Shown piece by piece: positions 4,230 to 60,686 of a DNA stretch of 64,000 nucleotides. The notes beneath the pieces are model-generated. The model had not been told where the DNA came from. It ran no database searches and saw only the letters and a program-made list of their open reading frames with translations. The first letter of the stretch is position 1. Each line of letters starts with the position of its first letter. Both the position numbers and the translations under genes were made by a program. The DNA lies in sequence record ON210139.1. One strand, given 5' to 3'. This stretch comes from Escherichia phage EC128.

Positions 4230-4302
4230 TGGGAATTAGCCAAGTTGGTAAGGCACTGGATTTTGATTCCAGGATGCAAAGGTTCGAGTCCTTTATTCCC
4301 AG
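4230..4302 (+). tRNA. tRNA-Gln (anticodon UUG)
   Basis: Cloverleaf: acceptor TGGGAAT/ATTCCCA, anticodon loop TTTTGAT, T-loop TTCGAGT. Confidence 0.85.
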
Positions 4303-4303
4303 C

Positions 4304-4390
4304 GCGAGAATGGTCAAATTGGTAAAGGCACAGCACTTAAAATGCTGCGGAATGATTTCCTTGTGGGTTCGAGTCCCACTTCTCGCACCA
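4304..4390 (+). tRNA. tRNA-Leu (anticodon UAA), long variable arm, CCA encoded
   Basis: Acceptor GCGAGAA/TTCTCGC, anticodon loop CTTAAAA, T-loop TTCGAGT, 3' ACCA. Confidence 0.85.
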
Positions 4391-4395
4391 AATTT

Positions 4396-4469
<74 letters not shown>

Positions 4470-4479
4470 ATTTAATTTA

Positions 4480-4553
4480 CTCCGTGTAGCTCAGTTTGGT
4501 AGAGCGTCTGCTTTGGGAGCAGAATGTCGTAGGTTCAAATCCTGCCACGGAGA
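4480..4553 (+). tRNA. tRNA-Pro (anticodon UGG)
   Basis: Acceptor CTCCGTG/CACGGAG, anticodon loop TTTGGGA, T-loop TTCAAAT. Confidence 0.8.
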
Positions 4554-4555
4554 CT

Positions 4556-4642
4556 GGAGGCGTGGCAGAGTGGTTTAATGCACCGGTCTTGAAAACCGGC
4601 AGTCGCTCCGGCGACTCATAGGTTCAAATCCTATCGCCTCCG
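4556..4642 (+). tRNA. tRNA-Ser (anticodon UGA), long variable arm
   Basis: Acceptor GGAGGCG/CGCCTCC, anticodon loop CTTGAAA, T-loop TTCAAAT. Confidence 0.8.
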
Positions 4643-4644
4643 TT

Positions 4645-4720
4645 GCTGATTTAGCTCAGTAGGTAGAGCAACTCACTTGTAATGAGAAGGTCGGCGGTTC
4701 GATTCCGTCAATCAGCACCA
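4645..4720 (+). tRNA. tRNA-Thr (anticodon UGU), CCA encoded
   Basis: Acceptor GCTGATT/AATCAGC, anticodon loop CTTGTAA, T-loop TTCGATT. Confidence 0.85.
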
Positions 4721-4721
4721 A

Positions 4722-4793
4722 GGCCCTGTAGCTGGAAGGTTCAAGCAAGCGACTCATAATCGCCAGATGGTGGTTCAATTCCACCCAGGGCCA
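4722..4793 (+). tRNA. tRNA-Ile (anticodon CAU, AUA-reading type)
   Basis: Acceptor GGCCCTG/CAGGGCC, anticodon loop CTCATAA, T-loop TTCAATT. Confidence 0.75.
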
Positions 4794-4834
4794 TATTTTG
4801 GGAACATAAATACTCTTAGAAATAGGAGATATTT

Positions 4835-5500
4835 ATGTTCCATTACACTTATAAAATAACAAATAAAATTAATAATAAAATTTATATTGGTGTGCATTCT
4901 ACCGAAAATTTAGATGATGGATATATGGGTTCTGGTAAATTATTAAAAAGAGCCCAAGATAAATATGGTATAGAAAATTTTTCTAAAGAAATATTAGAGT
5001 ATTTTGATGATAAAGAATCTATGCTTGAAGCCGAGAAAAATATTGTCACAGAAGAGTTTTTAAATAGACCAGATGTGTATAATTTAAAACTTGGCGGTGA
5101 AGGTGGATGGGACCATATAAATATTCCTGGGATGCTAAACCAGAAGAAAGACGCTAGTTTAAAAGGAGCTAAATCGTTTAAGTCACGTTTTAAAAATGAT
5201 ATTTTACTTCAAGAAAAATATCGTAAACATGGTTCAAATGTATTTAAACGCTTGTGGTCAACTCCTGAATACAGGGAAAAATTTTTAAATAATAGCAGAT
5301 TTTTAAATAAGCATCATACTCCTGAAACTATTAATAAAATGAAAGAATCTCACGCCAGAAATAAACACCAACAGGGCGAAAAGAATTCCCAATTTGGTAT
5401 GATGTGGATTCATTCATTAGATGAAAAAGTTTCTAAACGTATTAAGAAAACTGACCCAATTCCAGAAGGATGGTTTAAAGGTCGAAAAATGAAATTTTAA
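4835..5500 (+). CDS. segB: GIY-YIG homing endonuclease SegB-like
   Basis: 221 aa; N-terminal YTYKITNKINNKIYIGVHS...DGYMGSG; NUMOD-like basic repeats; inserted between tRNA-Ile and tRNA-Arg. Confidence 0.8.
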   Translation: MFHYTYKITNKINNKIYIGVHSTENLDDGYMGSGKLLKRAQDKYGIENFSKEILEYFDDKESMLEAEKNIVTEEFLNRPDVYNLKLGGEGGWDHINIPGMLNQKKDASLKGAKSFKSRFKNDILLQEKYRKHGSNVFKRLWSTPEYREKFLNNSRFLNKHHTPETINKMKESHARNKHQQGEKNSQFGMMWIHSLDEKVSKRIKKTDPIPEGWFKGRKMKF

Positions 5501-5503
5501 TTA

Positions 5504-5580
<77 letters not shown>

Positions 5581-5924: not shown

Positions 5925-5932
5925 TATAAATA
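5925..5932 (+). promoter_or_regulatory. late promoter TATAAATA
   Basis: Exact TATAAATA about 35 nt upstream of the 5969 start. Confidence 0.55.
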
Positions 5933-5968
5933 AGTATATTAAAACCACGATTTAAAACAGGAAATAAG

Positions 5969-6443
5969 ATGAAATCATATGCTCAATTTTTAAATGAAGC
6001 GGTGTTAAATGAAGCATCTAGCACCGAAATTCAAGCTGTCGCAAAAGCAGCCATTGCCGCGGGTAAATATTCCTATAAAGATGCTTCCGATGAATCGCGA
6101 TTCCAGTTCGCACGCGACATGAAAGCGGAAGGATTTACGGGAAATGCAGTTAGTATGGCCTGGAAAAGTTTAGTTGCTACTGGAGCTGCTTTTGCAAAGG
6201 CTTCAGGTAAACCTGCTCCTAAAGCAGATCCTAAAGCTGCACAAGAAAAAAAATATTGTTAAAGGAATTATCTCCAAATATGAAGCTATCCTTAAAGAGC
6301 TTTTAGTAATCAAAACTGAAGGCCAAAAGCTAGCTCGTGCTTATAGTTTCAAAGATAATCCGCATGCTCATGACCTAGAGTATGTTGAAGACATCCAAAA
6401 AATTATTAAAGACCGCATTTGGTCTGCTAAACAAATCAAATAA
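5969..6443 (+). CDS. internal-protein-like gene with capsid-targeting N-terminus, interrupted by a frame change at an A8 run (6246-6253)
   Basis: N-terminus MKSYAQFLNEA; frame A stops at 6260-6262; the next 64 sense codons (to 6443) are in another frame and contain no Met; one fewer A would fuse them. Confidence 0.5.
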
Positions 6444-6451
6444 CATTCTTA

Positions 6452-10850: not shown

Positions 10851-10866
10851 TACTTGGAGGGATAAA

Positions 10867-18591: not shown

Positions 18592-18777
18592 ATGACAAGT
18601 GAGCAGGCTTTTAAATTAAGAGAATTAATTGAGACGTATAGTAAAGCTGTTCATACATCAACAATTATTGATGAATCAGCTTTCTCCGGACATGCTAACA
18701 AGATTAAATACAAAACTCTTATGGAAGAAGCTAAAGTAAATCTTGATTCTTATATTGAAACTTTAATTGGTAAATAA
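18592..18777 (+). CDS. hypothetical small protein
   Basis: 61 aa, AAAGGAG RBS. Confidence 0.5.
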   Translation: MTSEQAFKLRELIETYSKAVHTSTIIDESAFSGHANKIKYKTLMEEAKVNLDSYIETLIGK

Positions 18778-18778
18778 T

Positions 18779-18928
18779 ATGAAAGCTGTAATTGAAACAA
18801 CTGATTTGTTCGGTGACCTAGTTATCGAAAAACGCGGTAATGTATACGTTCTGACGCAGGAAGACGATAGTATTACTATTCTTCCTATGGAACTGGCTGC
18901 GATTTTATCTTATGCTCCCTCAAACTAA
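18779..18928 (+). CDS. hypothetical small protein
   Basis: 49 aa, below the ORF-track cutoff. Confidence 0.35.
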   Translation: MKAVIETTDLFGDLVIEKRGNVYVLTQEDDSITILPMELAAILSYAPSN

Positions 18929-19307
18929 TATTACAGGTGACCTCCAAGTTCGTTTTTATCGTGGCCTTTACGGCGGTAATATTGAAACTGAATTTATGTG
19001 TCTTTCTATCAACAATTGGGCAACATTCGTTGCCAAGGTGAAAGAATTCTTAGAATCTGAAACAGTCGAAACACCCGAAAAGGCTAAACTTCAATGGGCT
19101 AAAGATCGCGGTGCTAACATTATTAATCCAGTAGCTGCAAACTATACTACGACTTTGGATGTCAAGACTTCTTATGAAGATGGCGATGTCGTACTTGTTC
19201 GCCAAAATGATGATTCTCGAGCACATATTGTCACATTTACCAAAGACGAAGCTATTGCGCTAAAGACTTATCTTGATTCTGTCATTCCAACTATGATTTC
19301 AAAGTGA
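18912..19307 (+). CDS. hypothetical protein, paralog of the next gene
   Basis: 131 aa; C-terminus TKDEAIALKTYLDSVIPTM resembles SKSEAEAMIKYLTTVTPSM of the 19314 product. Confidence 0.5.
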   Translation: MLPQTNITGDLQVRFYRGLYGGNIETEFMCLSINNWATFVAKVKEFLESETVETPEKAKLQWAKDRGANIINPVAANYTTTLDVKTSYEDGDVVLVRQNDDSRAHIVTFTKDEAIALKTYLDSVIPTMISK

Positions 19308-19313
19308 GGAAAT

Positions 19314-19841
19314 ATGTTTATTTCAAGTGGAAGTGGTTTAATTCGTGTTGAATTTAAAAATGACATCTTTCTTATTCAAGGAGATGATATTATTAAAATG
19401 AGTTATGACGAAATCAAGAAAATTTGTCATGCTCTTGAAAGTCATGGAAAAGTGAACGCTGTTATTGATATTGGCGATTTATGGGTGACACTTTATGAAG
19501 TATCCGAAGGATTTAACATTGAAGATGAAAATAACATTTTAGCTATTGATAAAAGAAGTGATTTGTTTGATGTATTAAAAGTTTATGAACAGTCAAATGG
19601 CGGAAGAAAAGCTGCATTGATTTATCAAAAACCACATTCATGTGGAACTGCTTCAATCATTTCAAATATTGAAGATGAAGATGAAGTTGATACTTATATG
19701 TGTGTTTTAAAAGCTGGTGGTGACCGTCATCCGGATTTTATTTCTATTCGTCAAAACAATGGAGAAATTTCATTATCAAAATCAGAAGCTGAAGCTATGA
19801 TTAAGTATTTAACAACTGTTACGCCTTCAATGAAAGGATAA
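19314..19841 (+). CDS. hypothetical protein, paralog of the previous gene
   Basis: 175 aa, GAGGAAA RBS. Confidence 0.55.
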   Translation: MFISSGSGLIRVEFKNDIFLIQGDDIIKMSYDEIKKICHALESHGKVNAVIDIGDLWVTLYEVSEGFNIEDENNILAIDKRSDLFDVLKVYEQSNGGRKAALIYQKPHSCGTASIISNIEDEDEVDTYMCVLKAGGDRHPDFISIRQNNGEISLSKSEAEAMIKYLTTVTPSMKG

Positions 19842-19843
19842 TT

Positions 19844-20305
19844 ATGATTATTAATGAAAACTCTTGGCACTATAAATTATTCAAATTGTTTAACGATGAA
19901 TGGCAACGACCTAAGACACTATGCGCATATTTTTGGTCTATTGCTATTCCTACATTTTTCGTTTCTATTTTTGGATGTGCTATACTCGTAGGGCTAACAA
20001 TTATTTGCGCAGAAAGCCTACAGCGTTGGCTTATTTTTGGTAGTTTATGGACTTTGCTTCCATCAGCATTTATACTTGCGCTTTTGGTTGTTTTACTTAT
20101 TATCGGTTCATTTGTTATTCCTGCACATTTGCGTGAAAAATATAAAGATTATAAATGGAAAAAGGATTATGCTTTACACGTAGAAAATATTGATAGGGCG
20201 TATAAAGGTTTACCTCCTATTCAACCAAAGAAATCGATTATCGTTGAATTTTTAAAAGCTCGTAAAGCTAAAGTATGTCCTGTTATTGAATATAAGGCTG
20301 AATGA
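19844..20305 (+). CDS. membrane protein
   Basis: 153 aa with two long hydrophobic segments. Confidence 0.55.
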   Translation: MIINENSWHYKLFKLFNDEWQRPKTLCAYFWSIAIPTFFVSIFGCAILVGLTIICAESLQRWLIFGSLWTLLPSAFILALLVVLLIIGSFVIPAHLREKYKDYKWKKDYALHVENIDRAYKGLPPIQPKKSIIVEFLKARKAKVCPVIEYKAE

Positions 20306-21433: not shown

Positions 21434-22402
21434 ATGAAAACTGTAACTATCAATAAGGGTATCTACTTCGGTAAAGAAATCTCTGGAACTTTTGAGCTCT
21501 TAGGTGAATGGTTCCCAGATAATGCTCCGGTAGATGCACAAGGAGATGGTAAAGTTTTTGTTGAAATTGACGGTAAGCGTCGCGGTGTTTGGGTTTACAA
21601 ATCAGACATTTCATATGATGGTGTAAAAGTTGAAGAAGTTAAAGAATCATATGAAGATATGAAAACCCGCATTAATAAAAGATTTAATGTTATGGGAATG
21701 ATGACGAATGGTATTATTAACGGAAACATTCGTTCATTAATTATCTCTGGTGCGGCGGGTATTGGTAAAACGTATTCTTTAGATAAAGCTTTGAATAAAG
21801 CAAATGATAATGGATACATTGAATATAAAAGCATTAACGGTAAAATCTCCGGTATCGGTCTTTATGAACAACTTTGGAATAATCGTGAAGAGAATTCTGT
21901 CCTTTTGATTGATGATGTGGATGTTTTCTCTGATATGGACATTCTTAATCTTCTGAAAGCTGCTCTGGACACTGGAGAGACCCGTAAAGTCTGCTGGAGC
22001 ACTGCATCTTCTTACTTAGAAGAAAAAGGCATTGAGCGTGAGTTTGAATTTAAAGGAACGATTGTTTTTATCACAAACGTTGACATTGACCGCGAATTAG
22101 ACCGTGGTACTAAACTTGCTCCACATTTACAAGCATTAGTGTCCCGCTCAGTTTATTTAGATTTGGGTGTTCACACTAATGAAGAAATTATGGTCAGGGT
22201 TGAAGATGTTATTCTTTCAACTGACATGATGCAAAAGCGCGGTCTTTCTGATGAAGAAACTTATAAAGCATTATCATGGATGAAAGTCAATGTTAATCGT
22301 TTACGCAATGTTTCACTGCGTACTGCTCTTTATCTTGCTGACTTTATTATGACCGACAAAAACGGTTGGGAAGAAATCGCTGAAACAGTATTATTAAAAT
22401 GA
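21434..22402 (+). CDS. AAA+/P-loop ATPase
   Basis: 322 aa; Walker A GAAGIGKT, Walker B LLIDDVD; ORF-track start at 21263 reads through the promoter and is rejected. Confidence 0.6.
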   Translation: MKTVTINKGIYFGKEISGTFELLGEWFPDNAPVDAQGDGKVFVEIDGKRRGVWVYKSDISYDGVKVEEVKESYEDMKTRINKRFNVMGMMTNGIINGNIRSLIISGAAGIGKTYSLDKALNKANDNGYIEYKSINGKISGIGLYEQLWNNREENSVLLIDDVDVFSDMDILNLLKAALDTGETRKVCWSTASSYLEEKGIEREFEFKGTIVFITNVDIDRELDRGTKLAPHLQALVSRSVYLDLGVHTNEEIMVRVEDVILSTDMMQKRGLSDEETYKALSWMKVNVNRLRNVSLRTALYLADFIMTDKNGWEEIAETVLLK

Positions 22403-23118
22403 AAAAATATTTTACTATCTATAAAACTGAAATATTAAATTTAAAGACAGGTATTAAGAAATACTATTATGGTCGACATATAACTAATAATATCAATGAT
22501 TCGTATGTTGGTAGTGGAAATTATATAGAACGTGTAAAAGTGTCAAATGACCACATATTATCAAAAACGGTTTTAGAAGTTTTTGATAATTATGATAAAA
22601 TGGTACAAGCTGAAATATTATATATCATGGCAGGTAAATTGAAATATGGGAAAAACTGTGTTAACCTGTCATACGGGGGTGAAGGAGGAAAGGTTGCAGA
22701 TGAAACTAGGATAAAATGCAAAAAGCATTCTATAAATTTATGGAAAAATCCTAATCATATACAGCATATGAAGAAAAAGATGAAAGAGGTCACATCCACG
22801 CCGGAAGCTAAATTAAACACTTCAATAAAAACTTCGCAACGATATAAGGACCCGGTTTTTGTTAGAAAAGTTAGTAATATTATTAAAAAGAAACTAAGCA
22901 ATCCTGTAGTAAAAGAAAAGCATATTAATGGAATTAAAGCTGCAAAGCGTTCTCATTTAACTATATGGCAGTATGAAGATGAATTATTCGAGCTCTGGAA
23001 AGAAACTAAATGTGGATGGAGAAAATTTACAAAGGAAGCTATAAAACACGGATATCCAAATGAACCGTATCGTAGTATGGTATCAACTTTTCAGAAAAGA
23101 CATTTAGAAGAATCCTAA
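22399..23118 (+). CDS. GIY-YIG homing endonuclease (seg-like)
   Basis: 239 aa; N-terminal KYYYGRHITNNINDSYVGSG; basic C-terminal DNA-binding-like repeats. Confidence 0.7.
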   Translation: MKKYFTIYKTEILNLKTGIKKYYYGRHITNNINDSYVGSGNYIERVKVSNDHILSKTVLEVFDNYDKMVQAEILYIMAGKLKYGKNCVNLSYGGEGGKVADETRIKCKKHSINLWKNPNHIQHMKKKMKEVTSTPEAKLNTSIKTSQRYKDPVFVRKVSNIIKKKLSNPVVKEKHINGIKAAKRSHLTIWQYEDELFELWKETKCGWRKFTKEAIKHGYPNEPYRSMVSTFQKRHLEES

Positions 23119-30333: not shown

Positions 30334-30807
30334 ATGTTATTGACTGGCAAATTATATAAAAAAGAAAAACAGAAATTTTATGATGCACAAAATGGTAAAT
30401 GCTTAATTTGCCAACGAGAACTAAATCCTGACGTTCAAGCTAATCACCTCGACCATGACCATGAATTAAATGGACCAAAAGCAGGAAAGGTACGTGGATT
30501 GCTTTGTAATCTATGCAATGCCGCAGAAGGTCAAATGAAGCATAAATTTAATCGTTCTGGCTTAAAGGGACAGGGTGTTGATTATCTTGAATGGTTAGAA
30601 AATTTACTTACTTACTTAAAATCCGATTACACCCAAAATAATATTCACCCTAACTTCGTTGGAGATAAATCAAAGGAATTTTCTCGTTTAGGAAAAGAGG
30701 AAATGATGGCTGAGATGCTTCAAAGAGGATTTGAATATAATGAATCTGACACCAAAACACAATTAATAGCTTCATTTAAGAAGCAGCTTAGAAAGAGTTT
30801 AAAATGA
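30334..30807 (+). CDS. 49: endonuclease VII (Holliday-junction resolvase)
   Basis: 157 aa; CLICQ...HLDHDH...CNLCN His-Me finger/zinc motif. Confidence 0.9.
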   Translation: MLLTGKLYKKEKQKFYDAQNGKCLICQRELNPDVQANHLDHDHELNGPKAGKVRGLLCNLCNAAEGQMKHKFNRSGLKGQGVDYLEWLENLLTYLKSDYTQNNIHPNFVGDKSKEFSRLGKEEMMAEMLQRGFEYNESDTKTQLIASFKKQLRKSLK

Positions 30808-31341
30808 CAATTGAAAAAGAAATTGAAGGATTGATTCATAAAACTAATAAAGACCTTTTGAACGAGAATGCTAATAAAGATTCTCGTGTTTTTCCAACTC
30901 AACGGGACCTTATGGCTGGTATTGTGTCTAAACACATTGCCAAAAATATGGTCCCGTCTTTTATTATGAAAGCGCATGAAAGCGGAATTATCCATTTCCA
31001 TGATATTGATTATTCCCCTGCTCTTCCATTTACTAATTGCTGTTTAGTAGATTTAAAAGGAATGCTTGAGAACGGATTTAAGCTCGGTAATGCACAGATT
31101 GAAACTCCTAAATCAATTGGCGTTGCTACTGCAATTATGGCACAAATTACTGCACAGGTTGCTTCCCATCAATATGGCGGAACGACTTTTGCGAATGTAG
31201 ATAAAGTACTTTCTCCTTATGTTAAACGCACCTATGCAAAACATATTGAAGATGCAGAAAAATGGCAAATCGCCGATGCGTTGAATTATGCTCAATCTAA
31301 AACAGAAAAAGACGTATACGATGCATTCCAAGCTTATGAGT
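30804..31341 (+). CDS. nrdD: anaerobic ribonucleotide reductase NrdD, exon 1
   Basis: Frame runs to 31349 but homology to exon 2 resumes at 32381; splice after U31341 inferred. Confidence 0.8.
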
Positions 31342-31545
31342 TAACGTAAGTCAAGCTCATGTAAAATCTGCCTAAAACGGGAAACTCTCACTGAGACAAT
31401 CCGTTGCTAAATCAGCGGTAGCTGTAAATGCCCAACGACTATCCCTGATGAATGTAAGGGAGTAGGGTCAAGCGACCCGAAACGGCAGACAACTCTTAGA
31501 GTTGAAGATATAGTCTGAACTGCATGGCGACATGCAGCTGTTTAT

Positions 31546-31569
31546 CCTCGTATAAATACGAATACGAGG
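31546..31569 (+). promoter_or_regulatory. late promoter TATAAATA embedded in a hairpin that sequesters the intron-ORF RBS
   Basis: CCTCGTA-TAAATACGAA-TACGAGG; GAGG of the stem is the SD for the ATG at 31577. Confidence 0.6.
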
Positions 31570-31576
31570 TGAAACG

Positions 31577-32353
31577 ATGAAATGGAAATTAAGAAAAAGC
31601 TTAAAAATTGACAATTCTGTAGCATTTACCTATATGGTAAGATTTCCTGATAAGTCTTTTTATATAGGTTTTAAAAAATTCAAAACTATATATGGTAAAG
31701 ATACAAATTGGAAAGAATACAATTCGTCATCTAAGCTTGTTAAAGAAAAGCTTAAAGATTATAAAGCTAAGTGGATAATTCTTCAAGTTTTTGATTCTTA
31801 TGAATCGGCCCTTAAACATGAAGAAATGCTTATTAGGAAACATTTTAATAACGAATTTATTCTTAATAAATCTATAGGTGGATATAAATTTAACAAATAT
31901 CCGGATTCAGAAGAACATAAGCAAAAACTTAGTAATGCCCATAAAGGTAAAATCTTATCTTTAAAACATAAAGATAAGATACGAGAGAAATTGATTGAGC
32001 ATTATAAAAATAATAGTAGAAGTGAAGCTCATGTTAAAAATAATATTGGTAGTAGAACGGCTAAAAAGACTGTTTCTATAGCTTTAAAATCCGGAAATAA
32101 ATTTAGAAGTTTTAAATCAGCTGCAAAATTTCTTAAATGCTCTGAAGAACAGGTTAGTAATCATCCAAATGTTATAGATATAAAAATAACAATTCATCCC
32201 GTCCCAGAATATGTTAGAATAAATGACAATATCTATAAATCATTTGTGGATGCTGCTAAAGATTTAAAACTCCACCCAAGTCGTATTAAAGATTTGTGCT
32301 TAGATGACAATTATCCAAATTACATTGTTTCATATAAACGGGTAGAGAAGTAG
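31577..32353 (+). CDS. intron-encoded GIY-YIG homing endonuclease, I-TevII-like
   Basis: 258 aa; FTYMVRFPDKSFYIGF; located inside the nrdD intron. Confidence 0.75.
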   Translation: MKWKLRKSLKIDNSVAFTYMVRFPDKSFYIGFKKFKTIYGKDTNWKEYNSSSKLVKEKLKDYKAKWIILQVFDSYESALKHEEMLIRKHFNNEFILNKSIGGYKFNKYPDSEEHKQKLSNAHKGKILSLKHKDKIREKLIEHYKNNSRSEAHVKNNIGSRTAKKTVSIALKSGNKFRSFKSAAKFLKCSEEQVSNHPNVIDIKITIHPVPEYVRINDNIYKSFVDAAKDLKLHPSRIKDLCLDDNYPNYIVSYKRVEK

Positions 32354-32380
32354 CGAACTCTACTGAACACATTGATGAAG

Positions 32381-33654
32381 TGAACACGTTATTCAGTTCA
32401 AACGGACAAACGCCTTTTGTAACAATTACATTTGGTACGGGAACTGACTGGACTGAACGAATGATTCAGAAAGCAATTTTGAAAAATCGTATTAAAGGTC
32501 TTGGTCGTGATGGGATAACTCCTATTTTCCCTAAGCTTGTTATGTTCGTTGAAGAAGGTGTTAATCTTTATAAAGACGATCCGAACTATGATATTAAGCA
32601 GCTTGCTCTAGAGTGTGCAAGCAAAAGGATGTATCCTGATATTATTTCAGCTAAGAACAATAAAGCTATCACTGGTTCATCTGTTCCTGTTTCTCCAATG
32701 GGTTGCCGTAGTTTCTTGAGCGTATGGAAAGATTCGACTGGTAATGAAATTCTTGATGGACGTAATAATCTTGGTGTTGTAACACTGAATCTTCCTCGCA
32801 TCGCGTTAGATTCTTATATTGGAACACAGTTCAATGAACAGAAATTTGTTGAATTATTCAATGAACGAATGGATTTGTGTTTTGAAGCATTGATGTGTAG
32901 AATTAGTTCCTTAAAAGGAGTTAAAGCTACTGTTGCTCCTATTCTTTACCAAGAAGGTGCATTCGGGGTTCGTCTTAAACCTGATGACGATATAATTGAG
33001 TTATTTAAAAGCGGTAGAAGTTCAGTGTCCCTAGGATACATTGGTATTCACGAATTGAATATTCTTGTTGGTCGTGATATTGGACAAGAAATTTTAACTA
33101 AAATGAATACTCATCTTAAACAATGGACTGAAAGAACTGGTTTTGCTTTTAGTTTGTATTCTACTCCTGCTGAAAACCTGTGCTATCGCTTCTGTAAACT
33201 TGATACCGAAAAATATGGAAGTGTAAAAGATGTTACCGATAAAGGCTGGTACACTAACAGTTTCCACGTTTCGGTAGAAGAAAATATTACTCCATTTGAA
33301 AAGATTTCTCGCGAAGCCCCATATCATTTCATTGCGACAGGTGGTCACATTTCTTATGTTGAACTTCCTGATATGAAAAATAACTTAAAAGGTCTTGAGG
33401 CCGTATGGGATTATGCTGCACAACATTTAGATTATTTTGGTGTTAACATGCCGGTAGATAAATGTTTTACATGCGGAAGTACCCATGAAATGACTCCTAC
33501 TGAAAACGGATTTGTTTGTTCTATTTGTGGAGAAACTGATCCTAAAAAGATGAACACCATAAGAAGAACATGCGGATATCTTGGAACTCCTAGCGTTGTT
33601 CCATGGAATTTAGGTAAAATGAAAGAAATGGTAAAACGAGTAAAACATGCATAG
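32381..33654 (+). CDS. nrdD: anaerobic ribonucleotide reductase NrdD, exon 2
   Basis: Zinc site CFTCGSTH...CSICGE and glycyl-radical motif RRTCGYLG near the C-terminus. Confidence 0.85.
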
Positions 33655-34477
33655 GTATTATATAATTTATAAAATAACAAATATAATTAATTCAAAGGAA
33701 TATATCGGTGCGCATAGCACCGATAACATAAATGACGGTTATATGGGGTCAGGAACATTGATTCGTGCCGCTTTATTAAAATATGGTAGAAAAAATTTTA
33801 ATAAAGAAATTTTACATGTTTTTGATAATGAAAAACAAATGTATGATAAAGAAGCTGAACTTGTAACCGAAGAGTATTGTCTAAAAGAAAATACATATAA
33901 TATTAAACCTGGTGGAAAAGGTGGAACTGCCTATGAACAGACACTTGAACATCGCCGCAAAAATAGTTTAGCAAATAAAGGTAAAAAGAGAACAGAAGAA
34001 ACTAAAATAGCTATTTCACGTGCTTTAAAGAAATATAAACGTACGCCAGAGCATCAAGCAAATTTAAATAAAGCCGTAAGCATAGCTATGAAGCGAAAAG
34101 ATGTTAGAAGTAAATTAGCTGGAGAGCGGTCTGAGAAAGATAAATTATCTATATCAAACGGTGTTAAAAAATATTACAATTCTTTGAGTGAAGAAGAACG
34201 CGAACTTCATCGCAAGCGAATTATTGAAGGTAAAAAGAATTCTCCCATGTCATTGGAATCTAGACAAAAGCTTTCAAAAGCTTTAAAAGGACTTCAAGTT
34301 GGTTCAAAAAATCCAATGTATGGAAAAATTTCTCCAACTAGCAAAACCGTTTCAGTTGACGGTATTAAATATGATTCAATTAAAAAGTGCTCAAATGCCA
34401 TAAAAGTTTCTAGACATCTTATACTAAAACGCTGTAATTCTACTGATGAAGCTTGGAAAAATTGGATATTATTATGA
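33647..34477 (+). CDS. GIY-YIG homing endonuclease (seg-like) between nrdD and nrdG
   Basis: 276 aa; YYIIYKITNIINSKEYIGAHSTDNINDGYMGSG; overlaps the nrdD stop and the nrdG start. Confidence 0.75.
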   Translation: MHRYYIIYKITNIINSKEYIGAHSTDNINDGYMGSGTLIRAALLKYGRKNFNKEILHVFDNEKQMYDKEAELVTEEYCLKENTYNIKPGGKGGTAYEQTLEHRRKNSLANKGKKRTEETKIAISRALKKYKRTPEHQANLNKAVSIAMKRKDVRSKLAGERSEKDKLSISNGVKKYYNSLSEEERELHRKRIIEGKKNSPMSLESRQKLSKALKGLQVGSKNPMYGKISPTSKTVSVDGIKYDSIKKCSNAIKVSRHLILKRCNSTDEAWKNWILL

Positions 34478-34944
34478 ATTATGACAGAATATACCCGTGC
34501 TGCTTTGTGAATGGCCCTGGATGCAGGGTCGTTCTTTTCGTTACAGGTTGTTTGCATAAATGTGAAGGGTGTTATAATAAATCAACATGGAATGCTAGAA
34601 ATGGTGTTCCATTCACTGGTGAAACACTAGAACAATTAATTGAATGTTTGAATAATGATTATATAGAAGGATTGACTATAACCGGAGGTGACCCTCTTTA
34701 TCCTGATAACAGAGACGTGATTCACTCTGTGGTTCAAACTATTAAAAATCTTTATCCCAATAAAAGCATTTGGTTGTGGACAGGATATAAGTTTGAAGAT
34801 ATTAAACAACTAGAAATGCTTAAATATGTTGATGTTATTATTGATGGGAAGTATGAGAAAAATCTTCCGACTAAAAAGCTGTGGCGAGGATCAGATAATC
34901 AGCGACTTTGGTCAAATACCGATGGGGTGTGGACACATGATTAA
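34474..34944 (+). CDS. nrdG: anaerobic RNR activating enzyme NrdG (radical SAM)
   Basis: 156 aa from ATG 34474; CLHKCEGCYN radical-SAM cysteine motif. Confidence 0.85.
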   Translation: MNYDRIYPCCFVNGPGCRVVLFVTGCLHKCEGCYNKSTWNARNGVPFTGETLEQLIECLNNDYIEGLTITGGDPLYPDNRDVIHSVVQTIKNLYPNKSIWLWTGYKFEDIKQLEMLKYVDVIIDGKYEKNLPTKKLWRGSDNQRLWSNTDGVWTHD

Positions 34945-35059: not shown

Positions 35060-35275
35060 ATGTATAAATTTCGTAAAGGTTTAGCTGATTTTCTTACAAC
35101 TGTAACATTCTTTCTGTTTATGGCAGTTGGAGCTATTTTCCTTATTCCTTTTATTGCTATATTTTTCGTGATTAGTTTAATTTCTCCAGAAAAGGGCTTA
35201 TCTTCTAGTGAGTTCAATGAGCGTCTGGATAAAATTACTAACAAGCTGAATGCGGTTCTTGATAAAAAGGATTAA
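35060..35275 (+). CDS. small membrane protein
   Basis: 71 aa with one long hydrophobic helix. Confidence 0.45.
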   Translation: MYKFRKGLADFLTTVTFFLFMAVGAIFLIPFIAIFFVISLISPEKGLSSSEFNERLDKITNKLNAVLDKKD

Positions 35276-35277
35276 TT

Positions 35278-35589
35278 ATGATTAGTTTTGAGCGGTATGT
35301 AGTAGAGAGTTGGAAGGGTTTTGATATGTTCGGTAATGACTATTATTTTTACGAATGTAGTCTAAATCCTAGTTTTTGGGCTGGACGTGAACGAGATCTC
35401 GAAGAAATTAATGCTCGTGCCGAATTGTTAGGTGAACTGCCTACGGTTTATTTTACCTTTGATGCATCTGGATTTGTTATCCAGGTTTATTTTCCTGAAG
35501 AAAACTCTGGCGAGAATTCTGTTAATCCTCCTTATTGGGCTTACCAAGGAATTATTTCTCGTGGAACAAAACTCGAACTTAAAGAATAA
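35278..35589 (+). CDS. hypothetical protein
   Basis: 103 aa, ATG overlapping the upstream stop. Confidence 0.5.
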   Translation: MISFERYVVESWKGFDMFGNDYYFYECSLNPSFWAGRERDLEEINARAELLGELPTVYFTFDASGFVIQVYFPEENSGENSVNPPYWAYQGIISRGTKLELKE

Positions 35590-37442: not shown

Positions 37443-37708
37443 AATTTATTAATATTTCTATTACTATTGAAAATTATGGCATTTTCTATGTTGACCAATA
37501 CATGAAAATTTCATTTTTCCCAAATAAGACTGGTGTTGGATATTGGGAAAGTCATGTTTCTGAATTAAATGAAAGTGAATATGCTAGCACACATGAAAAG
37601 TTTTTAGACTTTTTATATCATGCTGATTTAACTAGTCATTATATAGATATTCATGAATTTAAAAAGATGATGGAGAAAGTGTTCCAAGCATACTGTTTAC
37701 TTAGATAA
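37439..37708 (+). CDS. hypothetical small protein
   Basis: 89 aa, ATGA coupling. Confidence 0.5.
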   Translation: MKFINISITIENYGIFYVDQYMKISFFPNKTGVGYWESHVSELNESEYASTHEKFLDFLYHADLTSHYIDIHEFKKMMEKVFQAYCLLR

Positions 37709-39265: not shown

Positions 39266-39282
39266 AACAAAGAGGATATTAA

Positions 39283-40485
39283 ATGAAAGTATGTATTTTT
39301 ATGGCTCGAGGTCTTGAAGGTTGTGGTGTAACTAAATTTTCTCTTGAGCAACGTGATTGGTTTATTAAAAATGGTCATGAAGTAACTTTGGTTTATGCTA
39401 AAGATAAATCATTTACTCGTACAAGTTCTCATGACCACAAATCATTTTCAATTCCAGTTATTTTAGCTAAAGAATACGATAAAGCACTTAAGCTGGTAAA
39501 TGATTGTGATATTCTAATTATTAATTCTGTTCCTGCTACTTCCGTTCAAGAAGCCACGATTAATAACTATAAAAAACTTTTAGATAATATTAAACCTTCT
39601 ATTCGTGTTGTAGTTTATCAGCATGATCATTCTGTTCTTTCTTTGCGTCGAAATTTGGGATTAGAAGAAACTGTTCGTCGAGCTGATGTTATTTTTAGCC
39701 ATTCTGATAATGGTGATTTTAATAAAGTTCTGATGAAAGAATGGTATCCAGAAACTGTTTCTCTGTTTGATGATATTGAAGAAGCACCAACAGTATATAA
39801 CTTTCAGCCTCCTATGGATATTGCGAAGGTTCGGTCAACTTATTGGAAAGATGTTTCTGAAATTAACATGAACATCAACCGTTGGATTGGTCGTACGACT
39901 ACATGGAAAGGTTTTTATCAGATGTTTGATTTTCATGAAAAATTCTTAAAACCTGCTGGTAAATCCACTGTAATGGAAGGTCTTGAACGTTCCCCTGCTT
40001 TTATTGCAATTAAGGAAAAAGGTATTCCGTATGAATATTATGGTAATCGTGAGATTGATAAAATGAATCTCACGCCGAATCAACCGGCACAAATCCTAGA
40101 TTGTTATATTAATAGTGAAATGCTTGAACGAATGAGTAAATCTGGCTTTGGATATCAGTTGAGTAAACTTAACCAGAAATACTTACAACGCTCACTCGAA
40201 TATACTCATCTTGAATTAGGTGCTTGCGGTACAATTCCTGTTTTCTGGAAATCAACGGGTGATAATTTAAAATTCCGTGTTGATAATACTCCTTTGACCT
40301 CACATGATAGCGGTATCATTTGGTTTGATGAAAATGACATGGAATCAACATTCGAGCGTATTAAAGAATTGTCATCTGACCGAGCTCTTTATGACCGTGA
40401 GCGAGAAAAAGCATATGAATTTTTGTATCAGCACCAAGATTCAAGCTTCTGTTTTAAAGAACAGTTTGACATTATTACAAAATAA
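39283..40485 (+). CDS. agt: DNA alpha-glucosyltransferase
   Basis: 400 aa, CIFMARGLEGCGVTKFSLEQRDWFIKNGHEV...; recognisable as T4-type a-gt. Confidence 0.9.
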   Translation: MKVCIFMARGLEGCGVTKFSLEQRDWFIKNGHEVTLVYAKDKSFTRTSSHDHKSFSIPVILAKEYDKALKLVNDCDILIINSVPATSVQEATINNYKKLLDNIKPSIRVVVYQHDHSVLSLRRNLGLEETVRRADVIFSHSDNGDFNKVLMKEWYPETVSLFDDIEEAPTVYNFQPPMDIAKVRSTYWKDVSEINMNINRWIGRTTTWKGFYQMFDFHEKFLKPAGKSTVMEGLERSPAFIAIKEKGIPYEYYGNREIDKMNLTPNQPAQILDCYINSEMLERMSKSGFGYQLSKLNQKYLQRSLEYTHLELGACGTIPVFWKSTGDNLKFRVDNTPLTSHDSGIIWFDENDMESTFERIKELSSDRALYDREREKAYEFLYQHQDSSFCFKEQFDIITK

Positions 40486-50097: not shown

Positions 50098-50334
50098 ATG
50101 AAAATTGTTATGGGGTGCTTAGCAGTTTGTTTAGTTGCATTAGCAGCAGTTCCATTTGTTAGTGTTGAAAATGATACTCAACCTGTGATTGAATCTAGCA
50201 CCGTTATTCACACTAATGGTAAAATATCAGTTAAAATTGATGATAATCTTCATGTGAATACTAATGGAACGCTGGGTGTTCAATTAGGTAATATCTGTGT
50301 AAGCACTACTGGAGTAATTACTACTTGTATTTGA
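50098..50334 (+). CDS. small secreted/membrane protein
   Basis: 78 aa from ATG 50098; hydrophobic N-terminus MKIVMGCLAVCLVALAAVPF; ORF-track extension from 49906 rejected. Confidence 0.5.
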   Translation: MKIVMGCLAVCLVALAAVPFVSVENDTQPVIESSTVIHTNGKISVKIDDNLHVNTNGTLGVQLGNICVSTTGVITTCI

Positions 50335-50344
50335 GGAAATTATT

Positions 50345-50725
50345 ATGAAAATCGCTATTTTGGTTATTGCATTAGGTCTTACTGGTTGTGTAGCTCAAGG
50401 ACCGGTAGTAAATCAGTCTGATGTAGGAAAAATTGTAAACTGTTCAAGCAAATTTTATAATCCTAATGTCAAGTGTTATAAAGAAGCTCCAAAACAGACA
50501 GTAGAACAAATGCAGGCGAATTTTGACGAGGCTATTCGTCCAGATGAATCTGCTCAAGCATATCGTAATTCGGATGTAATTACACGCGAAGAAAAAATTG
50601 AAAACTACTGTGCAGAACTTTGGGCAAATTGGGCTAATAATTACCAATGGCGTACAGGTAAAAATGCTCCGATGGAGTATGTAGTGAATTCTTATAATTC
50701 ATGTGTAAAAAATTTGACTAAGTGA
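50345..50725 (+). CDS. putative lipoprotein
   Basis: 126 aa; lipobox MKIAILVIALGLTGC. Confidence 0.55.
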   Translation: MKIAILVIALGLTGCVAQGPVVNQSDVGKIVNCSSKFYNPNVKCYKEAPKQTVEQMQANFDEAIRPDESAQAYRNSDVITREEKIENYCAELWANWANNYQWRTGKNAPMEYVVNSYNSCVKNLTK

Positions 50726-51137: not shown

Positions 51138-51878
51138 ATGATTAACGATTATATGACAGTTGAAGAAATCCGTCTTGATTTGGGTCTTGCATTAAAGGAA
51201 AAAGATTTCGTAATTGATAAAACCGGGGTTAAAACTATTGAAATTATTGGTGCATCATTTGTAGCAGATGAACCTTTTATTTTTGGCGCTCTTAATGATG
51301 AATACATTCAGCGTGAACTTGAATGGTATAAATCTAAGAGCTTGTTCGTTAAAGATATTCCAGGTGAAACACCGAAGATTTGGCAGCAGGTAGCATCTTC
51401 TAAAGGCGAAATTAACTCGAATTATGGTTGGGCTATCTGGTCAGAAGATAACTATGCTCAGTATGATATGTGTTTAGCTGAACTTGGTCAAAATCCTGAT
51501 TCTCGACGTGGTATCATGATTTATACTCGTCCATCCATGCAATTTGACTACAATAAAGATGGTATGTCAGATTTCATGTGTACGAATACAGTACAGTACC
51601 TGATTCGTGATAAGAAAGTCAATGCGGTTGTTAGCATGAGAAGCAATGATTGCTGGGCAGGCTATCGTAATGATTATGCTTGGCAAAAATACGTACTAGA
51701 TAAATTAGTATCTGATTTGAATGCAGGCGACCCATCGCGGCAATATAAAGCAGGTTCTATTATATGGAACGTTGGAAGTCTTCATGTGTACGAAAATCAG
51801 TTTTATTTAGTTGACCATTGGTGGAACACCGGTGAGACTCATATTGCTAAAAAGGATTATACTGGAAAATGGAAGTAA
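51138..51878 (+). CDS. 42: dCMP hydroxymethylase gp42
   Basis: 246 aa, thymidylate-synthase-like fold cues (DFMCT nucleophile region). Confidence 0.85.
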   Translation: MINDYMTVEEIRLDLGLALKEKDFVIDKTGVKTIEIIGASFVADEPFIFGALNDEYIQRELEWYKSKSLFVKDIPGETPKIWQQVASSKGEINSNYGWAIWSEDNYAQYDMCLAELGQNPDSRRGIMIYTRPSMQFDYNKDGMSDFMCTNTVQYLIRDKKVNAVVSMRSNDCWAGYRNDYAWQKYVLDKLVSDLNAGDPSRQYKAGSIIWNVGSLHVYENQFYLVDHWWNTGETHIAKKDYTGKWK

Positions 51879-52510
51879 ATGTGCCACATGTTTATAAGTA
51901 TAAACATCCTAAAACTAAAAAGTGGTATATAGGAAGTCATGATGGTCACAACCCGAATTATGACGGTTCGGGTGTAGTTTGGCAACATGCTAAAAAGAAA
52001 TATGGAATAAAATCCTTTAATAAAGAAATATTATATGAAGGACCAATGTTTAGACAGGTTGAAGAAATTATTTTAACTTGTTTAGATGCTGCTAATTGTC
52101 CGGATTCATATAATTTAAAGAATGAAGCATGGGGAGGAAGTTTTCCAGGCAAATTAAATGGAATGTACGGTAAAAAACTATCTCCAGAAGAAAGATATAA
52201 GTGCGGAAATGCCTTTCGTGGAATCAAGCGTCCTGATCATTCTAAAAGAATGAAAGGCGAAGGTAATCCAATGTATGGTAAAAATGAGCAGGCATATGGA
52301 ATTATAAATCGAGCAAAGGAAAATTCTGGTAAAACTTATGAAGAAATTTTTGGCGCAGAAAAAGCTAAAATAATTAAAGAAACGATGTCTAAAAATCGTA
52401 AAGGAAAACCTCATAATTTGATAGAAAAAATATGTCCGCATTGCGGACTAAAAGGACGTGGGCCAAATATGACAAGATACCATTTTGACAAATGTAAGGC
52501 ACTTAAATGA
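51869..52510 (+). CDS. GIY-YIG homing endonuclease (seg-like)
   Basis: 213 aa; HVYKYKHPKTKKWYIGSHDGHNPNYDGSG; overlaps flanking genes at both ends. Confidence 0.7.
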   Translation: MEVNVPHVYKYKHPKTKKWYIGSHDGHNPNYDGSGVVWQHAKKKYGIKSFNKEILYEGPMFRQVEEIILTCLDAANCPDSYNLKNEAWGGSFPGKLNGMYGKKLSPEERYKCGNAFRGIKRPDHSKRMKGEGNPMYGKNEQAYGIINRAKENSGKTYEEIFGAEKAKIIKETMSKNRKGKPHNLIEKICPHCGLKGRGPNMTRYHFDKCKALK

Positions 52511-53349
52511 TTCAATTCGTAATTCCAAGCTATCAACGCGTAGGGGCAGTTTCTGCCCTTGATATGTTTCCGACTGATTATGAACCACATATTGTAGTGC
52601 GTGAACACGAAGAAAAAGCTTATTATGATGCTTATGGGTCTAAAGCTAAAATTGTAACTATTCCTGATGATGTTAATGGAATTGCCGGTACTCGTAAAGC
52701 AATTACTGATATGTATGCAGGTCAACGAATCTGGATGATTGATGATGATACTACTATTCGTATGAGTTCAATACGAAAGAGAGACGATAAACGGCGCGTA
52801 GATAAAATTAATCAATTAACTCGTGAACAGTTCTATGAATTAATTCAATACGTTGAGGATGCTATGGATTGCGGGTATTATCACGGTCATGCTCGTCTAC
52901 CAATTTTTAAAATTACTTCATCTTGGGGTAATTATCGTGAAAACTCATATGGATTCACGAATACATGGTATGACCTCGGAAAACTTACGACAGAACAAAT
53001 TGGGTATGGAAAAATTGATTTATGTGAAGATATGTACGCATTTCTCAATTTAATTAATCAAGGTTATCCGCATTTGGCCTTGTTCAAATATCTAGTTGTA
53101 TCTGGAAAATCACACGCTCCCGGCGGGTGCAGTTCAATTCGTAGTAATTCTAAACATAATAGAGCGCTTGAACAAATCAATAGAGAGTTTCCAGAGCAAG
53201 CTTGTTGGAAAACTTCTAATATTGAAAAACGAAAATCGTTGGGTGAAGAAGACGAGCCATTAAAGGTTCTTCGCATGTGTGTTTCTCGTAAAGAAAAATC
53301 AGAAGCATTTCATAAGTTTAATGCTATTCATCCAATAGCAGTTGATTAA
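52507..53349 (+). CDS. GT-A-type glycosyltransferase at the beta-gt locus (candidate HMC-DNA glucosyltransferase)
   Basis: 280 aa; N-terminal FVIPSYQR and DxD motif WMIDDDT; sits between 42 and uvsX where T4 carries beta-gt. Confidence 0.5.
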   Translation: MIQFVIPSYQRVGAVSALDMFPTDYEPHIVVREHEEKAYYDAYGSKAKIVTIPDDVNGIAGTRKAITDMYAGQRIWMIDDDTTIRMSSIRKRDDKRRVDKINQLTREQFYELIQYVEDAMDCGYYHGHARLPIFKITSSWGNYRENSYGFTNTWYDLGKLTTEQIGYGKIDLCEDMYAFLNLINQGYPHLALFKYLVVSGKSHAPGGCSSIRSNSKHNRALEQINREFPEQACWKTSNIEKRKSLGEEDEPLKVLRMCVSRKEKSEAFHKFNAIHPIAVD

Positions 53350-59256: not shown

Positions 59257-59291
59257 ATGTCCTCCTTTAAATTAATATTTATCATAAATTT

Positions 59292-59329
59292 GTTTACTTT
59301 CTCAGCTTGTTATGGTATTATAAAATAAA
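59292..59329 (+). promoter_or_regulatory. early promoter
   Basis: GTTTAC ... TATGGTATTAT. Confidence 0.55.
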
Positions 59330-59346
59330 TTGCTGAGGATGATATA

Positions 59347-60686
<1,340 letters not shown>

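Follow-up and report, generated by a model that had tools for sequence, protein, structure and literature searches.

The nrdD gene of the Tequatrovirus Escherichia phage EC128 almost certainly harbours the mobile group I intron known from nrdD of phage T4 and its I-TevII endonuclease gene, with splicing, homing and late-only translation of the endonuclease following the course proposed below. The gene lies in a stretch of 64,000 nucleotides from record ON210139.1, which was analysed as a whole and is referred to here as the window. We computed the fold of the intron, the exact exon junction, the identity to T4, the intactness of the open reading frame (ORF), and the geometry and conservation of the hairpin, late promoter and Shine-Dalgarno sequence upstream of it. 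No feature of the sequence argues against the intron and I-TevII reading. The element is already known: it is the textbook sunY/nrdD intron of T4 with I-TevII, found here in a T4 relative, and as such it is real but ordinary.

Organisation of nrdD and the splice junction

All features described here lie on the plus strand. Exon 1 (30804..31341) starts at ATG 30804 and comprises 179 codons and the first base of Tyr180, exon 2 (32375..33654) runs from the last two bases of that codon to the stop codon and contains the glycyl-radical domain, and the 1033 nt between them form the intron (31342..32374). A first-pass annotation had placed the break after ...AYE at about 31341, which was correct: T31341, the last base of exon 1, is the first base of the Tyr codon right after AYE. 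The same annotation had coding resume at 32381, which is 6 nt too far downstream. Exon 2 restarts at 32375 with AT followed by GAA GTG AAC, directly after G32374, the 3' end of the intron, and the protein reads ...AYE-Y-EVNTLFSSNGQ across the junction. Joining the exons in silico, with GCTTATGAGT up to 31341 and ATGAAGTG from 32375, gives a NrdD of 605 aa, and 31341/32375 is the only in-frame choice that yields a continuous protein.

The proposed interruption of nrdD is borne out by the two exons matching complementary parts of the Pfam NRDD profile. Exon 1 covers profile positions 1-141 (1.4e-40), while exon 2 covers positions 145-562 (2.2e-122) and also matches Gly_radical (5e-25). The spliced product aligns without gaps to T4 NrdD (PDB 1H78) over residues 1-604 (1370 bits), with RRTCGYLG present. 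Judged by its NRDD and glycyl-radical domains and by this full-length match to a NrdD of solved structure, the host gene is a class III anaerobic ribonucleotide reductase NrdD.

The insert had been described as a segment of 1.04 kb with structured, GC-rich ends. Its size and structure stand, whereas 'GC-rich' is a loose term: the 5' 197 nt of the intron have 46% G+C and the last 34 nt 44%, against 34.5% for the whole window and 27% for the ORF, so that 'rich' holds for the ends only by comparison with the AT-rich genome around them.

The endonuclease gene

The predicted 258-aa GIY-YIG ORF is present at 31577..32353, between P9 and the 3'-terminal domain of the intron. It is identical to annotated T4 I-TevII at 255 of the 258 positions, the changes being A12D, Y89H and K214R, and it matches PHROG 314 'homing endonuclease' (2.7e-28). 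Pfam gave a SegE_GIY-YIG match (PF19835) of 23.3 bits, under the cut-off of 25, a NUMOD3 match that was also under its cut-off, and a NUMOD1 match of 23.1 bits, borderline over the cut-off of 22.8; a PDB sequence search with the ORF returned no match up to E = 1. The N-terminal GIY-YIG motifs can be read directly from the protein as FTY (17-19) and YIG (29-31), and the conserved Glu and Asn as E81/E82 and N97; Y19, Y29, G31 and N97 do not vary when the protein is aligned with four others of the seg type. On these motifs, the PHROG match and the identity to the T4 protein, we assign the ORF as I-TevII.

I-TevII is listed in Table 1 of a review as an active GIY-YIG enzyme, and the nrdD intron is mobile (PMC2988022). 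Given 255/258 identity to the T4 enzyme, the product of the EC128 ORF is predicted to cut intron-less nrdD site-specifically.

A hairpin, a late promoter and the Shine-Dalgarno sequence overlap

Upstream of the ORF the RNA is predicted to fold into a regulatory hairpin (31539..31576) with an inner and an outer stem. The inner stem of 8 bp is formed by CCTCGTAT (31546-31553) and ATACGAGG (31562-31569) and closes a loop of 8 nt; the outer stem of 5 bp pairs 31539-31543 with 31572-31576. The minimum free energy of -15.5 kcal/mol (z -4.6) was reached by one of 200 shuffled sequences. The T4 late-promoter motif TATAAATA (31551..31558) spans the 5' arm and the loop, and the Shine-Dalgarno GAGG (31566..31569) lies in the 3' arm, 7 nt ahead of ATG 31577. 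Going by geometry only and the usual T4 spacing, late transcription would begin within the 3' arm, at about 31564.

The motif TATAAATA occurs 10 times in the window, each time on the plus strand, against 10.1 occurrences expected by chance. Since this frequency equals the chance expectation, the count by itself carries no weight as promoter evidence, and the promoter call rests on the position of the motif, its conservation and experiments in T4. The hairpin folds in the same way in T4, and an equivalent stem of 11 bp is found in a second intron lineage, typified by Salmonella phage GRNsp7, in which TATAAATA also keeps its position. The first-pass annotation had thus described correctly both the late promoter within a hairpin whose 3' arm holds the Shine-Dalgarno sequence, an arrangement conserved in a sister lineage with a 56%-identical endonuclease, and its match to established T4 biology: promoter and ribosome-binding-site-sequestering structures like those of I-TevI have also been found for I-TevII (PMC2988022). 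I-TevII is reported to be synthesised only late in T4 (PMC2988022, its reference 48), and by analogy with that work translation in EC128 would likewise be confined to late transcripts.

The overlap of TATAAATA and hairpin could instead be fortuitous, with I-TevII always made from read-through nrdD transcripts or never made at all. The chance-level frequency of the motif in this AT-rich window would fit such a view, as would the finding that T4 from which the I-TevI hairpin had been deleted showed no change in viability mediated by the endonuclease (PMC2988022). We consider it very unlikely, however: the hairpin is much more stable than shuffled sequence; the stem, Shine-Dalgarno sequence and TATAAATA are all kept in the GRNsp7-type intron despite differing surroundings and 9 inserted nt; and the review cites the T4 primer-extension mapping (PMC2988022).

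We also considered whether I-TevII might bind TACGAATACGAGGTGAA (31556-31572) as an operator and so repress its own late transcription. This segment shares bases with the late promoter, with the 3' arm of the hairpin and with the Shine-Dalgarno sequence. Of its 17 positions, 13 agree with the nrdD homing site that spans the insertion point (TATGAGTATGAAGTGAA), a match that is not above chance (190 of 2000 shuffles did equally well). Such autorepression has been demonstrated for I-TevI but is no more than a proposal for I-TevII (PMC2988022), and we regard TACGAATACGAGGTGAA as a doubtful candidate.

Fold of the ribozyme

The group I assignment made in the first-pass annotation held when the segment was compared with the Rfam model RF00028 (Intron_gpI), which it matches with 98.2 bits (gathering score 50; E 3.7e-24) over model positions 1-253 of 253. 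The P1 register implied by Rfam (31310-31342) was wrong, and P1 was re-derived by hand and checked on related introns. In the re-derived P1 (31335..31361) UAUGAGU at the end of exon 1 (31335-31341) forms a helix with GCUCAUG (31355-31361), the internal guide sequence, a U31341.G31355 wobble marks the 5' splice site, and the intron starts just after this U.G pair. P1 is paired in 100% of cases among six related introns, with one pair varying from A-U to G.U.

The catalytic core (31367..31537) was likewise derived by hand and examined for covariation. It consists of P3 (31367-72/31484-89), P4 (31376-81/31400-05), P5 (31386-89/31393-96), P6 (31406-07/31430-31), P6a (31413-16/31421-24), P7 (31437-41/31511-15), P7.1 (31443-46/31457-60), P7.2 (31465-69/31474-78), P8 (31491-95/31499-503) and P9 (31520-26/31531-37). 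For the full hand-derived structure (P1, P3 to P9, P7.1 and P7.2), 97.2% of cells across the six related introns are paired; slid controls pair at 33-43%, and in this covariation count none of 500 shuffles came as high. Both-side compensatory changes across related phage introns were found for 23 of the 55 pairs, among them 4/6 in P3, 2/6 in P4, 4/4 in P6a, 1/5 in P7, 3/4 in P7.1, 3/5 in P7.2 and 5/5 in P8, so the core helices P3-P8, the P3/P7 pseudoknot included, are backed by covariation. The few unpaired cells are likely to be alignment artefacts rather than broken pairs, because MAFFT misregisters P8 of GRNsp7 (CAUC-GAAA-GAUG) and P6a of PD06 and F99. The presence of P7.1 and P7.2 between P7 and P3' is a hallmark of subgroup IA. 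From sequence and covariation, segment 31342-32374 is a group I intron of subgroup IA type.

The 3'-terminal domain of the intron (32341..32374) comprises a hairpin (32341-47/32358-64), whose predicted loop contains the I-TevII stop codon (32351-53), followed by UGAACACAUUG up to the terminal G. It is 100% identical to T4, and in the GRNsp7 lineage its stem reads GCAUGA/UCAUGC in place of GUAGAG/CUCUAC. P10 is weak, at about 3 bp, as it also is in T4 sunY.

The T4 nrdD (sunY) intron interrupts the same host gene at the same point, between T and AT of the Tyr180 codon, is also 1033 nt long, and has an ORF of the same position and length (258 aa) with the same hairpin, late promoter and Shine-Dalgarno sequence. 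Compared with T4 record MT984581, in which the exons are annotated as joined at this very junction, the EC128 intron is colinear and 99.2% identical, with 8 mismatches in 1033 nt and no indels. Four of these precede the ORF (31417, 31497, 31528 and 31559), and all four lie in hairpin loops (L6a, L8, L9 and the regulatory hairpin, respectively), none in a helix; the other four lie in the ORF and give rise to A12D, Y89H and K214R. The eight EC128 substitutions are absent from T4 and from phage RPN226, the only carrier besides T4 that was compared base by base, and in this comparison the three amino acid changes appear private to the EC128 copy. Splicing of the T4 intron is well documented in the literature, and from the 99.2% identity between the two we infer that the EC128 intron self-splices in a GTP-dependent manner.

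That the insert is instead a decayed, non-splicing remnant, leaving nrdD a pseudogene or a source of two separate polypeptides in the manner of Aeh1 nrdA, which is split by the free-standing mobE, is extremely unlikely: several database records do annotate the nrdD halves as separate CDSs and GTG 32380 could in principle start the exon 2 ORF, but no Shine-Dalgarno sequence precedes that GTG, all core helices are intact with differences from the self-splicing T4 copy confined to loops before the ORF, and the in-frame join gives a full-length NrdD whose sequence agrees with that of the crystallised protein over the junction.

Distribution and related introns

The T4-type intron was found in 24 phage records, many of them T4 itself, while the nrdD junction is uninterrupted in 621 of 693 phage records, Salmonella phage SG1 among them. 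Its presence therefore varies among phages, as had been anticipated, and the T4-type intron appears rare in these records. The genome that carries it here is not T4. Exon 1 is 96.8% and exon 2 94.2% identical to T4, and where T4 has mobC, EC128 has a SegH-like gene. This replacement, by a gene of the GIY-YIG type, lies just downstream.

GRNsp7-type introns (Salmonella phage GRNsp7, Shigella phage JK45 and others) share the insertion site and architecture of the EC128 intron. Their endonuclease is homologous to the EC128 ORF, with 56% aa identity, and the late promoter, hairpin and Shine-Dalgarno sequence are conserved. Over the whole of nrdD with its intron they show about 85% nucleotide identity to EC128; divergence is greater in the intron core, at about 72% identity in JK45-type records, and many compensatory helix changes are present. 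A megablast search with the intron alone missed these introns, which were found by long-query and distant searches. Phage BYEP01 carries an ORF-less form of the GRNsp7-type intron in which most of the ORF has been lost.

The T4 td intron, which encodes I-TevI, has a homologous IA-type core (about 80% in blastn over EC128 intron positions 84-199). The cut made by I-TevI lies upstream of the insertion site. The td intron differs from that of nrdD in its host gene and in the peripheral loop that holds the ORF; like that of nrdD, it encodes a GIY-YIG endonuclease under late-promoter and ribosome-binding-site hairpin control (PMC2988022).

Proposed mechanism and significance

The mechanism is carried over from work on T4: ribozyme self-splicing, cleavage by the endonuclease, homing and the restriction of its translation to late transcripts would proceed in EC128 as follows. 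The intron RNA would fold into a subgroup IA-type ribozyme and excise itself using a guanosine cofactor, and ligation of U31341 to A32375 would restore the Tyr codon and the 605-aa NrdD. I-TevII would cleave intron-less nrdD of co-infecting phages, about 13-15 nt downstream of the insertion site, and repair of the break off the intron-bearing copy would spread the intron by homing. In early and middle nrdD pre-mRNA the hairpin would hide the Shine-Dalgarno sequence, whereas late transcripts from TATAAATA, starting at about 31564, would be translatable because they lack the 5' arm.

In many deposited T4-like genomes each half of nrdD is annotated as a gene of its own and the endonuclease as a hypothetical protein, and the junction 31341/32375 permits a correct joined CDS. 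The intron is only 0.8% diverged from T4 while the flanking exons are 3-6% diverged, in a non-T4 backbone, a pattern that would be expected for lateral transfer driven by homing. The second lineage at the same site, together with its ORF-less derivative, provides a natural series for the gain and loss of the endonuclease gene.

A group I intron interrupts nrdD

The NrdD coding sequence is divided between an N-terminal ORF that starts with ATG and terminates ...QAYELT-stop (30804-31349) and a second ORF in a different frame that begins (V)NTLFSSNGQ and encodes the remainder (32380-33654), with a 258-aa ORF between the two (31577-32353). Exon 1 (30804-31341) matches positions 1-141 of the Pfam NRDD profile (1.4e-40), and exon 2 (32375-33654) matches positions 145-562 (2.2e-122) and also carries the glycyl-radical domain. 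As the two cover the profile in turn, they belong to a single interrupted gene. Its upstream neighbour is endonuclease VII (gene 49, 30334-30807) and its downstream neighbour the radical-SAM activase (nrdG, 34474-34944), the same order as in T4.

The first-pass annotation had proposed a group I intron here. The Intron_gpI model (Rfam RF00028) matches 31306-31537 over its full length at 98.2 bits (E 3.7e-24; gathering score 50), and this is the sole Rfam intron match in the window. Helices P1, P3, P4, P5, P6, P6a, P7 (in a pseudoknot with P3), P7.1, P7.2, P8 and P9 were derived by hand and examined in an alignment of six related introns: those of the window and T4, the GRNsp7-type intron, a second lineage at the window's insertion site, and the nrdD introns of Avunavirus 24-2-1, Justusliebigvirus PD06 and Vibrio phage F99. 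Standard pairs occupy 97.2% of cells, a share that falls to 33-43% in controls with the partners slid 1-3 columns along, and both sides change in 23 of 55 pairs. Compensatory changes are seen in P3 (4/6 pairs), P6a (4/4), P7.1 (3/4) and P8 (5/5). The observed covariation score was matched by 0 of 500 shuffles, a count that is not a probability for six related sequences. Support for the fold from the slid controls, and from the compensatory changes helix by helix, is unambiguous, and P7.1 and P7.2 place the intron in subgroup IA. At its 3' end, beyond the ORF, comes a short domain: a hairpin (32341-32347/32358-32364) with the ORF stop codon in its loop; the stem is GUAGAG/CUCUAC in the window and GCAUGA/UCAUGC in the GRNsp7 lineage.

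The splice junction

P1 is formed by UAUGAGU at the 5' exon end (31335-31341) and GCUCAUG (31355-31361), and includes a U31341.G31355 wobble pair, the marker of a group I 5' splice site. The earlier placing of the exon 1 break at about 31341 is exact. Downstream, a single position is both preceded by G and restores the frame, which makes G32374 the last intron base and A32375 the first base of exon 2; the earlier resumption point of 32381 was 6 nt too far downstream. Joining the exons across the 1033-nt intron (31342-32374) recreates a Tyr codon (T/AT). The ORF spliced in silico encodes 605 aa (...AYE-Y-EVNTLFSS...) and aligns without gaps to residues 1-604 of the T4 NrdD chain (PDB 1H78; 1370 bits), junction included. 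As an independent check, 150 nt from each side were joined in silico and searched against the phage collection, a contiguous match being one piece with at least 80% coverage. The joined junction was contiguous in 621 of 693 matching phage records, which are natural intron-less nrdD alleles.

Comparison with the T4 element

Phage T4 (MT984581) has a colinear region whose annotation gives nrdD as a joined CDS enclosing I-TevII, the GIY-YIG homing endonuclease. Compared position by position, the intron is 99.2% identical to T4 (8 mismatches), exon 1 96.8%, exon 2 94.2% and gene 49 97.7%. The intron is closer to T4 than its exons are, a pattern consistent with acquisition by homing. Its eight changes are found in neither T4 nor phage RPN226, the window's best match across this region (97.4%). 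Four lie within the 235 nt 5' of the ORF, at 31417 (L6a), 31497 (L8), 31528 (L9) and 31559 (the regulatory-hairpin loop), and all leave the helices untouched; the L9 change (GCGA versus GUGA) is GNRA either way. Four base changes in the ORF alter three residues (A12D, Y89H and K214R).

The 258-aa product had been called GIY-YIG, and this assignment is borne out by the family hallmarks (FTY 17-19, YIG 29-31, E81/82 and N97) and by a match to PHROG 314 'homing endonuclease' (2.7e-28). Its Pfam GIY-YIG-type match falls slightly under threshold, and a sequence search of solved structures gave no match. The presence of the intron is confirmed and the interpretation placed on it supported; the nrdD intron with I-TevII is an element already known.

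The regulatory hairpin and late promoter

Immediately 5' of the ORF, CCUCGUAU (31546-31553) pairs with AUACGAGG (31562-31569) across an 8-nt loop, and an outer stem, UGUUU/AAACG (31539-31543/31572-31576), ends one base or less from the AUG (MFE -15.5 kcal/mol, z -4.6). The sole Shine-Dalgarno, GAGG (31566-31569), lies 7 nt 5' of the AUG at 31577. The T4 late-promoter motif TATAAATA (31551-31558) begins in the 5' arm, of which it takes up the final three bases, and continues five bases into the loop. Such motifs typically cover about -13 to -6, and late transcription would be predicted to start near 31564, in the hairpin 3' arm; in RNA starting there the hairpin cannot form. The arrangement of late promoter, hairpin and Shine-Dalgarno described in the first-pass annotation is present, and agrees with published T4 biology, where the ribosome-binding sites of the intron endonucleases are sequestered by stable RNA structure and primer extension mapped the promoters of all three (PMC2988022).

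The motif by itself is no proof, since TATAAATA occurs 10 times in the window against 10.1 expected by chance. All ten exact copies (1778-61931) are on the + strand, a bias that agrees with the single transcription direction of the early/middle region. Conservation is the stronger argument: the GRNsp7-type intron, whose endonuclease is only 56% identical to I-TevII and whose hairpin loop is 9 bases longer, retains TATAAATA, the Shine-Dalgarno and a stable stem burying it (-17.3 kcal/mol, z -5.4). A 17-mer resembling the homing site, overlapping promoter and hairpin, has been proposed as an I-TevII operator (PMC2988022); when this speculative idea was tested, the homing-site-like 17-mer matched at 13 of 17 positions, which is not above chance.

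The intron combines the ribozyme fold, an exact splice junction, an intact endonuclease ORF and the hairpin, Shine-Dalgarno and promoter geometry. By analogy with published work on the almost identical T4 element, it would self-splice on initiation by GTP, and I-TevII would be translated late only. The enzyme would cut intron-less nrdD, and repair would then mediate homing, co-converting the exon sequence that flanks the intron.

Other differences from T4

The phage is not T4, and the whole window is mosaic relative to it. Where T4 carries the HNH gene mobC between nrdD and nrdG, the window has a free-standing GIY-YIG/NUMOD3 endonuclease gene (276 aa, 33647-34477, +; PHROG 314, 2.4e-60) that is labelled SegH in the annotation of related phages. 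It overlaps both neighbours, its ATG with the nrdD stop and its stop codon with the nrdG ATG. The nrdD 3' end (33555-33654, ~100 nt) and its T4 counterpart are about 35% diverged, which makes NrdD residues 584-605, directly after the glycyl-radical motif RRTCGYLG, unlike those of T4. The title of a paper by Sandegren et al. agrees with this picture.

A seg-like homing endonuclease gene (239 aa, 22399-23118, +; PHROG 314, 5.6e-30; no Pfam match) lies between the nrdC.10 and nrdC.9 homologues, a gap of 733 bp in the window and 37 bp in T4. At 51869-53349 (+), two genes stand in for T4 beta-glucosyltransferase and segA: a seg-like endonuclease (213 aa, 51869-52510, +) and a beta-glucosyl-HMC-alpha-glucosyltransferase (52507-53349, +; PHROG 842, 3.9e-87), which we take to suggest T2- or T6-like rather than T4-like DNA glucosylation. 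Compared with T4, the window is without mobB (39267-39292; 861 bp missing) and the 1.1-kb ipII/ipIII segment (10856-10863), and the mobD region is swapped for unrelated sequence including two y05I-like ORFs (18603-20301). A cluster of eight tRNA genes (4230-5577, +) is the equivalent of the T4 tRNA region, with a gap (4794-5503) at the position of segB in T4. Five short insertions relative to T4, of 230-540 bp, fall in intergenic or small-ORF regions (5928-6447, 35260-35585, 37453-37707, 50111-50345 and 59283-59820); a 97-aa ORF in one of them (5969-6262) had no Pfam match.

Distribution of the intron

Among phage records, 24 carry the T4-type intron, each with an identity of at least 98.9%: several T4 isolates together with T4T, RB55, RB59, PST, fPS-2, Manna, G8, RPN226 and U5. 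A 'distant' search with the intron core found 70 records at a core coverage of at least 80%; subtracting the 24 leaves ~46 records of the second lineage at the same nrdD site, GRNsp7 (intron at 1543-2574 of that sequence) and JK45 among them. BYEP01 carries an ORF-deleted derivative of this lineage (1543-~1830 of that sequence). The nrdD halves in second-lineage records are mostly annotated as separate genes. Homologous IA-type introns also split nrdD in unrelated phage genera (Vibrio phage F99, Avunavirus 24-2-1 and Justusliebigvirus PD06); that of F99 has an HNH ORF in its P6 loop, and nrdD of 24-2-1 seems to have two interruptions.

With 24 T4-type records, a second lineage and an ORF-less derivative, the intron is variably present, as had been anticipated, and the 621 uninterrupted junctions agree. 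Introns seem to have targeted nrdD repeatedly.
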